Shown: positions 187 through 4,288 of the stretch, in pieces
Layout: the number at the start of each line of letters is the position of its first letter
How positions within the stretch are numbered: the stretch's first letter is position 1
Source of the DNA: a virus
Length of the DNA: 64,000 nt
Strand: one strand, 5' to 3'
Virus record (IMG/VR): IMGVR_UViG_3300036828_000198
Span: 3,409-67,408 of that record
The notes under the pieces: model-generated
What the model saw: the letters and a program-made list of their open reading frames with translations, nothing else
Databases searched by the model: none
Told to the model about the DNA's origin: nothing
Translations under genes and position numbers: made by a program

Positions 187-600
187 ATGCCAGATGACAA
201 CTTGTATGATGGTCTAGTCAGACTAGGACAAGGTAGAAAGATATTCAGGAGGAAACGCAAGAGTAGGGGAGCAGACTTTTCCGGTCAAGAACCCCCTACT
301 ATGCAGGAGATCAACAGAGGCGTATGGTGCAAACGATGTAAGAAACGTCATCCGTACAATGGATCCAAGAGGATTAGATTGGGAACACAGTATGAAAAGA
401 GAGGAGCCCACTTCGTAATTTATTGGTTGTGCCCTGTAAGCGGTGACTATATAGGAGAGATATGTCTAGGACGTACGGGGACATCTACCCAACAAGACGA
501 GACTCTCACAACCACTACTATAGACTCTGGCACGGAATGCTCAAGAGATGCTACGACCCCGAGCATCATAACTACGCATACTACGGAGGAAGAGGAATAA
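187..600 (+). CDS. hypothetical protein, possible Zn-binding (CKRC...CPVS); 3' part overlaps HNH gene
   Basis: ORF coupled to upstream stop (TAATG); last ~45 codons overlap the HNH ORF and look like read-through. Confidence 0.55.
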   Translation: MPDDNLYDGLVRLGQGRKIFRRKRKSRGADFSGQEPPTMQEINRGVWCKRCKKRHPYNGSKRIRLGTQYEKRGAHFVIYWLCPVSGDYIGEICLGRTGTSTQQDETLTTTTIDSGTECSRDATTPSIITTHTTEEEE

Positions 601-980
601 CAGTATGCGATCGATGGTTCGAATTCGAATATTTTGTGGAAGACATACTGGAGTTTATTGGTCCTAAGCCCGAAGGACATACTCTAGACAGAATTGATAA
701 CTCAAAGGGATATTGTGCACGTAATGTACAATGGGCAACGATGATAGTGCAGAACAACAATAGACGTGAGATAAAGGCGCCAAGGCAAAGAGGTACAAAC
801 TATAGAGGTGTCACTCTGCATGCAGGCAAGTGGGTTGCAAAGGGTTCTCATAGAGGCCCTATCTATCTAGGCAGGCACGATACCCCTGAGGACGCAGCTA
901 GAGCATACGACACCTGGGCTCTACAAGAGTTCGGTCCGGAGTACAAAGGTTTCAACTTTCCAAGGAACGTAGGGAGGTGA
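462..980 (+). mobile_element. free-standing HNH homing endonuclease with C-terminal AP2-like domain
   Basis: WHGMLKRC, YGGRGITVCDRW, TLDRIDNSKGY...NVQWAT..QNNN; YRGV...YLGRH.TPEDAARAYD; RBS GGAGAG. Confidence 0.9.
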
Positions 981-985
981 TGTCA

Positions 986-3333
986 ATGAATTCGTCACGT
1001 ATACAACTATACACCTTCCAACGGGAGGCGGTCGACAAACTAGGAGTTCCCGAGCTTGCTAGTAGGTTGGTCGGTGACGATATGTTATCGGACTAGGAAA
1101 AACGTTCGAGGCTATTGTCATAGATATGCGCCTTAGGGTTAAGACCCTTAATGGCTCCGGACCTTTGAAAGTTAGGCGTACTCTGATACTTGCTCCTCTT
1201 TCGGTTCATGGACATTGGCAGAAGCACATTAAGGCATTGTGGCCTCAAGCACGTGTATACGTTATGGACAGAACTGGAATGCCTGTTGATGGTAGGCGAG
1301 CGTTCAGGAAGGCATTGACCCAGAACTACAACTACTACATTTGTCACTATGAAGCTGTTCGCAATAAGGATCTTATCCCAGCTATTCGCAAGGTAGATTG
1401 GTTCCACGTTATTGCTGACGAATGTCATAGGTTGAAGGGAAGAAAGACTCAACAGACTAGGGCTGTCAAAACCCTTAAACCTAAATTCAAGACAGGTATG
1501 TCTGGAACCCCTGCAGAAGATAAGCCACAAGACCTCTGGTCGATTTTGAATTGGCTGTGGCCTCAGACGTATAGGTCGTTCTGGAAGTTCGTTGGTGACT
1601 ACTGTAATCCACCGGAAACTCCTATATGGATGGCAGATGGAACTTTCAAGGCACTAGGAGACGTAAAGATTGGAGACAAGGTAATAGGTTGGGACTCTTC
1701 AAAGAAACTTTGTGTCTCTGACGTACTTGCGATCTACGGACGTAGAGCACCTCTTGTCAAGGCAACACTAGCATCGGGTTCGACTATCAGATGCACGCCT
1801 GATCATAAGTGGCTAGACCCAAGAGCAAGCGTACCTTCTAGAGTTAAACTAGGTTCTAACCCTTGGGTACAACTTGGACACAATCCTTTGGGACTATACG
1901 GTGGTTCTAAACATCTGTCCAAAGTGGTTGAAGTACCAGATGAGCTAACCTGGAACTTGAAAAAAGAAGCCATGTGGCTAGGTGGTCTTTACGATGGAGA
2001 AGGTAACATCAACGGAAAGGGTAATTTCAGTATATCTCAGTCTCCAACTCATAATCCGGAGGTATGTGACAGAATTAGAACAGTAACACGCCTTCTAGGA
2101 TTCGAAGTAAGCGAAGACCCTCACGGCGGATGTATTGTATTTAGGTTTACAGGAGGACAAGGGTCCCCTACCCTAGTCAATAGTCTGAAGGTTAAGTTTC
2201 TCAGCTACTGCGAACCATCACGAAAAGGTAAAATTGTAGATAGTCTGCTTAAAGCTCACTTTGGAAGGCTCGATCGTGTCGAGAAAATAGAGAAAGACGG
2301 AGACGACGAGCCTGTTATATCCATGAAAACCTCAACGGGAAACTATGTAGCTTGGGGATATGCGTCCAAGAACTGTGAACAAGAGACAGTCTGTCAAGAG
2401 TGCGGAGGGGTTTCAGCATTTGAAAACGGACCCATCATACACACTAGTCGTTGTACTAAGACTGGAACAACGTTCAAGAAGATCGTAGGCGTAAATAAAG
2501 CTTCTATACCTGCACTACGTAGGGAGATGTCTAGGTACACAGTCAGAAGGCTAAAGTCTGATCCAGGTATTCTAGATGAACTACCACCCAAGACGTACAC
2601 CGACATAGAAGTAACACTTGCTCCTAGGCAACGCAAAGCTTATGACCAGATGCGTAAGAATATGCTAGCCTGGATCGGAGAACATGAGGACCAACCACTT
2701 ACGGCGGCAGTGGTTGTGGCTCAGCTTTGTAGACTACAACAGTTCGCATTGGCATCTGCTCACATTGAAATGAGACCAGTTAGGAGACGTAAGACAGGAC
2801 AAGTAGAACTAGTACGATATGTCGTTCTAGAAGAGCCATCCTCCAAACTAGCAGCCCTAGAAGAGGTCATAGATGACCACCCAAACGAATCCTTCGTCGT
2901 CTTTTCCCAGTTCAAGTCGATGGCTAATCTCGTTGCCAGGAAACTGGAAAGTAAGAATATCTCAGTCGGGGTCTACACAGGTGACGTCAGGGAACAATCG
3001 GTTCGAGACAAGCTTGTTGATGAGTTCCAACACGGCGATATTCAGGTGTTCGTTGGGACCATTGCGGCTGGGGGCGAAAGTATCACGCTTCATAGATCCT
3101 CTACGTGCATCCTTCTTGATAGGCACTGGACGCCCACTAAGAACGAGCAAGCTGTCGATAGACTTCACCGTGATGGACAAAAGCACCCAGTCCAAGTTAT
3201 AGACATAATCGCCCGCAATACTGTTGACCTAGGACGTAGAACTAAGATTGCCGGAAAATGGAATACTCTCAAACTTCTACTGGACGACAAGGTAGACATG
3301 GACGCGTACGAGGAGCAGGCAAGTGGATATTAA
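986..3333 (+). CDS. SNF2-family helicase with intein; frame broken by a 5-nt insertion (1085-1089) in Walker A
   Basis: GGAGG RBS then MNSSRIQLYTFQREAV...LVGDDM (986-1084); GLGKTFEAI resumes at 1090 in the frame of ORF 1126-3333; ADECH, SGTP, VFSQF, QAVDRLHRDGQ motifs. Confidence 0.9.
1603..2373 (+). mobile_element. intein (257 aa) with LAGLIDADG domain in the helicase
   Basis: DY|CNPPETPIWMADG start, CTPDHKWL block B, WLGGLYDGEGNI, NYVAWGYASKN|C end. Confidence 0.9.
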
Positions 3334-3814: not shown

Positions 3815-4288
3815 ATGAGACAAATTCCAGTAGGTAGTATGGTTGCTTTCGTAGATGATGAAGACTACGAAAGAGTATCGGGCTATACTTGGTACCCTAT
3901 TGGTGATGGAAACGGCTATACGTTCTACGCAAGAGCATATGCGCCAACTGAACCTAGTGAACGCATCAACATGCATACGCTTATCACTGGTTGGGACCGC
4001 GTTGACCACTCGGATGGAAACGGTCTCAATAACCAGAAAGGCAATCTGAGAGAGACTACTCGTAGTCAGAATGCTATGAATCAGCGTAAGAAGACAGGGA
4101 CGTCTTCTTGCTTCAAAGGCGTAGGCAAACATAAGCAGTCAAACAAGTGGGCAGCGAGAATTAACAAAGACGGGCAAAGAACTAACCTAGGACTCTTTAC
4201 AGACGAAGAGGAAGCAGCACGAGCCTACGATATAGCAGCTAAAGAACTATTCGGAGAATTTGCCTATCTCAACTTTCCGGAGGAGTAA
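3815..4288 (+). mobile_element. HNH homing endonuclease with AP2 domain
   Basis: MHTLI...VDHSDGNGLNNQKGNLR.TTRSQN; FKGV...WAARI...LGLF..EEEAARAYD. Confidence 0.9.

Follow-up and report, generated by a model that had tools for sequence, protein, structure and literature searches.

A five-nucleotide gap within the Walker A motif of a soil-phage SNF2 helicase gene and its possible crossing by ribosomal hopping at the edge of a probable homing-endonuclease cassette

The stretch of viral DNA considered here, called the window in the following, comprises 64,000 nucleotides (bases 3409-67408) of the 67,408-base linear viral contig IMGVR_UViG_3300036828_000198 from a soil metagenome, which is estimated to be 68% complete, and it contains a gene for an SNF2-family helicase whose Walker A (P-loop) codons are interrupted by the five nucleotides TTATC. 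Similar gaps recur at this site in related genes, and the gap has the properties of a mobile-cassette boundary. From the sequences, the gap of the window is probably the 3' edge of a homing-endonuclease cassette which is crossed by a ribosomal hop at a stalled UUA codon. This reading of the gap as a hop is well supported by comparison but unproven. What the sequences show is the anatomy of the gap, its recurrence, the rules of its codons and the boundary of the cassette; from these we infer the hop, its efficiency and a role in immunity.

According to the mechanism proposed, a cassette would have entered the Walker A codons of the helicase gene, and TTATC would be its 3' junction. Besides an HNH gene and a strong ribosome-binding site, this cassette would carry a separate copy of the ~30 codons with which the helicase gene begins. 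By analogy with MobA and gene 60 of phage T4, the gap may break up the conserved target DNA and so shield the carrier from its own nuclease. During translation, Met-tRNA paired with AUG 1082-1084 would occupy the P site while the A site holds UUA, a codon that the phage otherwise avoids, and the ribosome would stall. The peptidyl-tRNA would then unpair and re-pair 5 nucleotides (nt) further on at AUC 1087-1089, where 2 of 3 bases match, and decoding would restart at GGA 1090 to give DDMGLGKT.

Anatomy of the split helicase gene

The closest uninterrupted proteins in a collection of 5.8 billion proteins, P0004 (84% identity) and P0005 (82%), both read GDDMGLGKT at the site of the split, and P0006 (72%) reads GDDLGMGLGKT. 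The parts of the split gene, in window positions, are as follows (ORF, open reading frame; aa, amino acids):

973-981, plus strand: strong Shine-Dalgarno sequence GGGAGGTGA of ORF1, from the sequence
986-1084, plus strand: ORF1, helicase residues 1-33 (Q motif, strand LVGDDM), whose last codon ATG 1082-1084 is the proposed take-off codon; from the translation, 77% identity to P0004 residues 2-31
1075-1077, plus strand: TGA that shuts the main helicase frame upstream of GLGKT, from the sequence
1085-1089, plus strand: coding gap TTATC, 5 nt, with TTA 1085-1087 as proposed hungry A-site codon and ATC 1087-1089 as proposed landing codon; absent from P0004, P0005 and the related locus L002, and marked by the rarity of TTA
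1090-3333, plus strand: bulk of the SNF2-family helicase, beginning at GLGKT and running to the stop codon; Pfam SNF2-rel_dom (PF00176, E 1.1e-26) and Helicase_C (PF00271, E 9.5e-16), 80-84% identity to P0004
1094-1096, plus strand: TAG that terminates ORF1 when the gap is read through, giving a 36-aa product, from the translation

Translated from ATG 986, ORF1 reads MNSSRIQLYTFQREAVDKLGVPELASRLVGDDM and then runs into TTA TCG GAC TAG, and the main frame reads R Y V I from 1078 and then GLGKTFEAIVID from 1090. No ATG, GTG or TTG was found in the main frame between TGA 1075-1077 and ATG 1126, where the listed 735-aa ORF begins. This bears out a first-pass annotation made from the sequence alone, which had noticed that the ORF track opens the helicase at 1126 without a Walker A motif, that a frame led by a ribosome-binding site runs from 986 through the Q motif and LVGDDM into TTA TCG GAC TAG, and that the main frame has a stop at 1075-1077 and resumes with GLGKT at 1090. 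Its further statement that the canonical DDMGLGKT needs 5 nt to be skipped holds by comparison with P0004. In BLASTP, residues 4-33 of ORF1 align to residues 2-31 of this protein, with Met31 as the last, and the alignment of the main frame begins with Gly32, so that exactly 5 nt (1085-1089) are extra and zero residues are missing. Two ORF pieces of one conserved protein, with 5 nt between the Met31 and Gly32 pieces, are the arrangement looked for in a bypassed gene. Both Pfam domains of the SNF2 family are found, and the Walker A motif is whole only when the gap is skipped.

Several lesions or relaxed constraint, as expected of a pseudogene, were not found: there is one lesion, and neither the downstream frame of 747 codons nor the ORF1 of 33 codons is interrupted, although a recent lesion could look the same. 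Recoding of TAG or TGA was ruled out as a restoring mechanism because the Q motif and the P-loop lie in different frames. Also ruled out was a two-piece helicase or an internal start, as no start precedes 1126 in the main frame and such an arrangement would divide the P-loop. For annotation, the consequence is that gene callers shorten such helicases: the gene of the window (P0003) is called from main-frame residue 62, without Walker A. Two further SNF2 matches, P0012 and P0086, are also called from after Walker A and may be more gapped genes.

The 5-nt gap and the sequence around it were confirmed in Logan contigs, made by a different assembler, which span positions 600-2600 in two runs with zero differences or indels (word depth 19.8 and 5.8). 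Both runs may be source samples of the viral contig itself, and because contigs drop rare variants, a minor gap-free variant may exist in the samples. The insert noticed in the first-pass annotation is thus genuine as judged from assembled contigs. A sequencing or assembly artefact might be suspected because the contig is metagenomic and both runs holding it may be its own source; it is extremely improbable, since another assembler yields identical bases in two runs without an indel, added bases are not a product of chimeric joins, and like gaps are present in 8 other assemblies. No RNA runs were found among the runs that carry the stretch.

Recurrence of the gaps and their codon rules

DNA of relatives was collected as 80 loci from metagenome contigs, 28 from viral contigs and L002. 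An assignable Walker A site was present in 100 loci, which gave 82 non-redundant loci at 90% identity. Outside these 82 are loci in which a Walker A site could not be assigned or the N-terminal region is missing (L024, L026, L059, L062, L069, L073, L090, L093 and L109), L081, which is a duplicate of L054, and near-duplicates of at least 90% identity. A gap of 5-8 nt within the codons for (D/E)-M-G-x-G-K is present in 9/82 loci, the window included; each is given below as codon before the gap, gap in parentheses and resume codon.

Window: ATG(TTATC)GGA, 5 nt
L094: ACT(TGACT)GGT, 5 nt
L050: ATG(TAGCTG)GGC, 6 nt
L054 (= L081): ATG(TTACCTG)GGT, 7 nt
L070: GGT(TGAAGGA)AAA, 7 nt
L095: CTT(TTAGCTA)GGA, 7 nt
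L010: CTT(TTACGCTT)GGG, 8 nt
L063: ATG(TTACCTCG)GGT, 8 nt
L080: GAA(TTACTGTT)ATG, 8 nt

The first zero-frame codon off the protein consensus is TTA in six of the nine gaps and a stop codon (TGA or TAG) in the other three, for which the chance is (4/64)^9 = 1.5e-11. The proposed A-site codon, which in bypassing is expected to be slow or a stop, is therefore TTA or a stop in 9/9 gaps, and TTA is the rarest codon of the window. At the other end of the gap, the last three bases agree with the codon before the gap in at least 2 of 3 bases in 7/9 cases (P = 6e-5). Four gaps lie inside G-x-G-K-T and have identical or synonymous codon pairs (CTT/CTT, CTT/CTA, GGT/GGA and ACT/ACT); as extra residues in this motif are not tolerable, the matched pairs there are as a hop requires. 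A putative take-off codon, an undecodable A-site codon, a short spacer and a putative landing codon are the marks of a hop.

In a FastTree tree of 80 rows, in which L110-L112, although counted in the 82, were omitted, the nine gapped genes are scattered: they require 9 changes, of which 8 or more are forced, and where nearest kin are reported for them these lack a gap. Each of three gapped phages was assembled from two samples, which indicates persistence. When a profile of the nine ORF1 peptides was run against proteins of 15-76 aa in the 5.8-billion collection, 24 mini-proteins of 29-59 aa were obtained, corresponding to the 9 known loci and 15 new ones. After the last canonical residue, the new ORF1s have a stop in 6 cases, Leu in 6, Arg in 2 and Gln in 1, and Leu or stop at the break in 12/15 has P = 1.8e-8. 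Three diverged ORF1 pairs, P0131/P0140, P0128/P0137 and P0144/P0145, have identical break positions, and their ORF1s are open and conserved. Degenerate patterns for the tails of new ORF1s (P0130, P0135) had no match in viral contigs.

Searches by nucleotide pattern were less productive. An exact 5-nt-gap pattern gave 2 chance matches in viral contigs, neither of them in a helicase gene, and was discarded. An ATGTTA-led pattern with variable gap gave at least 115 matches, and among the 80 loci fetched from these only L179 and L193, both of the L063 phage, are helicase gaps; its 9-nt in-frame matches were rejected as ordinary M-L-D-M-GLGKT proteins. The scan of genome contigs gave one contig only (L113), from a metagenome-assembled genome (MAG). 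In a crude and noisy scan of the whole window contig for TTA- or stop-led frame breaks, only the helicase site pairs an in-frame TTA with a downstream frame of more than 700 codons lacking a start codon close to its beginning, and other gaps in the contig are possible.

An alternative to the +5 hop is a frameshift, in which UUA stays empty and tRNA-Ile pairs with AUC (+2) to give DDM-I-GLGKT, or in which a -1 event adds two residues. Two extra residues before the P-loop are tolerated in P0006 (GDD-LG-MGLGKT), the AUG/AUC pair is imperfect, and the after-Met gaps of L054 and L063 are readable with two extra residues. A frameshift is nevertheless quite unlikely, because a slippery heptamer is absent at the site in the window and because in the four related gaps inside G-x-G-K-T, with their matched codon pairs, any extra residue destroys the P-loop. 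In addition, for the terminase gap of the Streptomyces phage phiHau3 a junction peptide detected by mass spectrometry decided the question for bypassing, according to the main text of PMC10732093.

The predicted fold of the window at this site pairs 1074-1082 with 1113-1121 (-19.7 kcal/mol, z -2.48, 1/200 shuffles as good). The hairpin of ggtgac with gttatc that had been proposed in the first-pass annotation, which would contain two G-U pairs, is not part of the predicted minimum-energy fold; no strong take-off stem-loop was found. The gap also makes a perfect 5-bp DNA palindrome, CGATA-TGT-TATCG (window 1078-1090), which could be a trace of its origin by template switching and not a signal.

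The use of TTA was counted in contig ORFs of at least 150 aa, where it accounts for 12 of 18,640 codons, against 97 for the next rarest. As a trinucleotide, TTA occurs 23 times in frame versus 442 and 110 times out of frame, and most in-frame occurrences sit in small ORFs on the strand opposite to their neighbours, which are probably not genes. TTA is thus near-unused despite 49.5% G+C and common CTA, ATA and GTA, and its in-frame rarity is close to that of a stop codon. This rarity suggests a host in which tRNA-Leu(UAA) is scarce or absent. No tRNA genes were found in the contig. TTA is also the rarest codon across 80 related loci (301/79,640), and the helicase ORFs of the window, L010, L080 and L095 have zero TTA elsewhere. 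Of the features of the phiHau3 type, avoidance of TTA in the phage genome is seen in the 23 in-frame counts.

The first-pass annotation had proposed UUA as the hungry codon that triggers the hop, and this is plausible given the rarity of TTA and the six TTA-led gaps. It does not fit the three gaps that begin with a stop, and these suggest that an undecodable A-site codon, and not a sensor of tRNA-Leu, is what is needed. It has been proposed for phiHau3 in Streptomyces that a UUA gap couples protein synthesis to host tRNA-Leu(UAA) charging (PMC10732093; PMC5009743, main texts), and on this precedent, and with TTA near-unused in the phage at its G+C content, the gap of the window might mainly serve as such a regulatory sensor for helicase synthesis, a tie that the first-pass annotation had also put forward. 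We consider this unlikely, as a stop replaces UUA not only in 3/9 DNA-verified gaps but also in 6/15 further ORF1s, as the HNH genes and the cassette boundary described below offer a simpler origin, and as the identity of the portal and helicase to proteins of actinophages is only ~28-30%.

Endonuclease genes, the cassette boundary and the possibility of a scar

Two endonuclease genes flank the helicase gene in the window:

462-980, plus strand: homing-endonuclease gene of HNH-AP2 type directly upstream of the helicase gene, whose stop TGA 978-980 lies inside the helicase Shine-Dalgarno sequence; Pfam AP2 E 7e-7, PHROGs matches to HNH endonuclease phrog_374 (E 4.6e-46) and to 8 other families of endonucleases
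3815-4288, plus strand: second endonuclease gene, of HNH_3-AP2 type, ~500 nt downstream of the helicase gene; Pfam AP2 E 9e-8, HNH_3 E 3.6e-5

That an HNH endonuclease gene ends inside the ribosome-binding site of the helicase is context beyond what the first-pass annotation had noticed. In gap-free relatives, a homolog of the window ORF 187-600 lies upstream of the helicase gene and directly adjoins it in several. Among the gapped relatives, L070, L080, L094 and L095 have an HNH gene immediately upstream, that of L095 being truncated, and L054/L081 carry an HNH-AP2 gene ~800 nt upstream. An HNH gene directly upstream is thus found in 5/9 gapped versus 1/59 gap-free loci (Fisher P = 6.9e-5). 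The 86 upstream ORFs of the 59 gap-free loci gave one AP2 and one HNH_3 Pfam match, and homology search places such an ORF upstream in L045 only. In this locus an HNH-AP2 gene (L045:2524-2991) lies directly upstream of an uninterrupted helicase gene, and its nuclease either targets another site or is kept from it by protecting base changes.

The boundary of the cassette is visible when L080 is compared with gap-free L053. On the 5' side of the gap 64 of 91 nt (70%) are identical and sequences farther upstream are unrelated, whereas the first 450 nt on the 3' side contain 1 mismatch (99.8% identity), with the step exactly at the gap. In L095 and L070, a remnant of an older helicase 5' end is kept upstream of the HNH gene. 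The HNH gene of the window, the L080/L053 step and these remnants together show the layout of the MobA/gene 60 type, with an endonuclease gene, an element-borne 5' copy and a gap. The Shine-Dalgarno motif GGAGGTG or GGCGGTG precedes ORF1 in 9/9 gapped loci (8 by script, L054 by eye) versus 8/68 gap-free loci, a difference that is partly clade-specific. At the Walker A codons, the gap-free stretch of 27 nt is highly conserved in 72 loci. As seen by eye, most split N-terminal ORFs start with Met-Ser (MSS, MSY, MSP and others) and most gap-free relatives with MAIELY, MKPY or MQLF; the Met-Ser starts may reflect a shared 5' end of the cassette. As an origin for the gaps, this association with HNH genes and with a cassette boundary is simpler than a regulatory sensor.

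Several observations weigh against the proposed mechanism. The codon pair of the window, AUG/AUC, has only 2 of 3 bases alike, and those of L063 (AUG/UCG) and L080 (GAA/GUU) only 1 of 3. No recognisable endonuclease lies next to the gene in L010, L050 and L063. TTA is not rare in members of low G+C, and as 4 of the 40 Leu codons of the L054 helicase are TTA, the idea of a hungry codon is weakened for L054. Predicted structure near the gap is weakly stronger in gapped than in gap-free kin (mean z -1.01 vs -0.32, P = 0.017), with no shared structure. The 15 new ORF1s, their tails included, are known at the protein level only. Since the nearest kin lack a gap and L080 shares 97% identity with L053 downstream, the insertions look recent, and intact downstream ORFs are therefore no proof of function. 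A dN/dS (nonsynonymous to synonymous substitution rate) comparison of L054 and L063 as a sign of a long-kept shared gap was dropped, since the tree does not make them sisters. In L093 (1020-1050), an in-frame TAG stands at the Walker A lysine codon (GLG-TAG-T) with zero extra bases and the frame kept. This TAG may be a nonsense knock-out or a read-through site, and no sign of general TAG recoding was seen within the 5.4 kb of L093; as no hop could repair it, plain knock-outs at the motif also exist. In L024 (2990-3030), the Walker A position is followed at once by a fused open frame of unrelated sequence. The breaks in L024 and in the MAG contig L113, which ends at the motif (L113:1-10), may mark the site as a recombination or assembly breakpoint.

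These points lead to the possibility that the gaps are inactivating scars, that is, that cassettes or error-prone repair at the cut site broke the helicase without any crossing by ribosomes, the loss being tolerated or the alleles being young or doomed. The gapped genes with reported nearest kin do sit beside gap-free kin, so that the events look recent and intact ORFs are uninformative, and the plain TAG of L093, the fusion in L024, the contig end at the motif and the poor landing matches of L063 and L080 would all fit such scars. We regard this as fairly unlikely. Random scars would not begin with TTA or a stop in 9/9 cases and with Leu or a stop in 12/15 further ones, would not leave precisely one codon repeated across the gap in 7/9, and would not all fall within 5-8 nt. 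Moreover, a cassette would not be expected to reach at least 8 lineages if it destroyed a gene that all 82 relatives have kept, the three diverged ORF1 pairs share their break with an open and conserved ORF1, and three gapped phages recur in two samples each. As to the wider claim that at least three unrelated HNH lineages converged on P-loop gaps with an undecodable first codon, which are hopped efficiently enough to keep the helicase working, we hold it to be evenly balanced.

A further insertion lies within the helicase gene itself:

1603-2373, plus strand: intein-like insert of 257 aa (C...N then C) with a LAGLIDADG-like motif; absent from P0004 and P0005 and bounded by FVGDY/C...SKN/CEQET

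The boundary residues of an intein (N-terminal Cys, C-terminal Asn and +1 Cys) are present, and the Pfam matches of the insert to Hint (E 1.8e-4), Intein_splicing and Hom_end_hint are all below cut-off. The LAGLIDADG-like motif lies near 1978. A search of PDB sequences with the insert gave no match, and similar segments are found in family B DNA polymerases (PolB) of other contigs (P0104 and others) with ~45% identity over the length of the insert. Together with the upstream HNH gene and the downstream HNH_3-AP2 gene, this makes three selfish elements in or around one gene; no comparable gap was seen in the ORFs after the gene at 3815-4288. The window is densely coding with zero N, and its other products include a portal, a terminase, a PolA-UDG fusion, a primase-like protein and a PD-(D/E)XK nuclease. 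Megablast against phage records gave no match, and tblastn gave only relatives of ~30% identity.

Relation to known bypassing systems

Short coding gaps and hops have reportedly been described before: a UUA-led short gap in the large terminase gene of phiHau3 by Smith et al. in 2013, a 50-nt bypass in T4 gene 60 with a MobA homing-endonuclease cassette by Bonocora et al. in 2011, +5 and +6 hops over slow codons in E. coli constructs by Weiss et al. in 1987, bypass at hungry codons by Gallant and Lindsley in 1998, and byps of 27-55 nt by Lang et al. in 2014. The hop proposed for the window resembles the E. coli hops in its length of 5-6 nt, in a peptidyl-tRNA that would re-pair at a similar codon and in an empty A site as trigger. 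In contrast to these, which are synthetic or non-programmed and of low efficiency, the arrangement described here is natural and recurrent.

The helicase gaps resemble in particular the terminase gaps of phiHau3 and the gene 60/MobA system. In phiHau3 and two prophages, UUA-led gaps of 7-10 nt interrupt 3/100 ter genes, with partial experimental support (Antonov et al. 2023, PMC10732093). As far as the main text of that paper goes, on which this comparison rests, both cases have a rare UUA after the last correct codon followed by a short frame-shifting non-coding block (7-10 nt there, 5-8 nt here), a site at a strongly conserved protein junction that is unlikely to accept additional residues, a phage that otherwise avoids TTA, and a putative landing codon before the resume codon. 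They differ in the gene, which is a terminase there and in the present case encodes the P-loop of an SNF2 helicase, in the number of lineages (9 in DNA and 15 by protein here versus 3/100 ter genes), and in the stop-led variants present here. A further difference is the linkage of the helicase gaps to HNH genes and to a cassette boundary, no such report for phiHau3 being found in the main text of PMC10732093, and the helicase family is known from sequence alone whereas phiHau3 has experimental support.

For MobA cassettes in T4-like phages, a layout that includes a clade with a hungry codon instead of a stop has been described (Manning and Atkins, bioRxiv 2022.08.31.505936). According to its main text, an endonuclease ORF that overlaps the start region of the next ORF is followed by an element-borne copy of the 5' segment of the target gene and then by the bypass. 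The landing codon lies at or close to the end of the insert, the take-off codon is followed by a stop or, in one clade, by a rare codon that is hungry, and take-off and landing codons match. The helicase genes have counterparts to these features, the codon match being partial in the window. Unlike gene 60, with a gap of 50 nt (20 nt in the shortest clade), the helicase genes have gaps of 5-8 nt and lack a strong take-off stem-loop, their target is a helicase and not topoisomerase II, their endonucleases are of HNH_3, HNH and HNH-AP2 types, and their immunity to cleavage would be a matter of analogy.

The mitochondrial byps of Magnusiomyces capitatus (Lang et al. 2014 as described in PMC5009743) are likewise short inserts in coding genes with an unused A-site codon and, in several cases, imperfect take-off/landing pairs; they occur in many genes of a mitochondrial genome, whereas the present gaps occupy one site in one gene family beside endonuclease genes. 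Very few systems of natural bypassing are known, namely T4 gene 60 and its homologs, the yeast mitochondrial byps and the candidate phiHau3 terminase. The same review, which also discusses phiHau3 and the MobA layout, asks for more cases (PMC5009743). The term helicase is absent from the main texts of PMC10732093 and bioRxiv 2022.08.31.505936, and in the literature on bypassing with helicase or HNH, or on UUA coding gaps in phage, no report of the helicase site was found, the coverage being incomplete and of main texts only.

If the wider claim of convergence among at least three HNH lineages is true, the helicase gaps would be the shortest natural programmed bypasses, and hopping would be a general, repeatedly evolved device by which homing elements of soil phages, beyond T4, obtain self-immunity. 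They would join two phage precedents, the hungry UUA and the homing-endonuclease cassette. The family would also give about two dozen natural variants of one site, differing in gap length (5-8 nt), position, first codon (UUA, UGA, UAG and perhaps rare Arg) and landing match, and thus a mutational series of a minimal hop.

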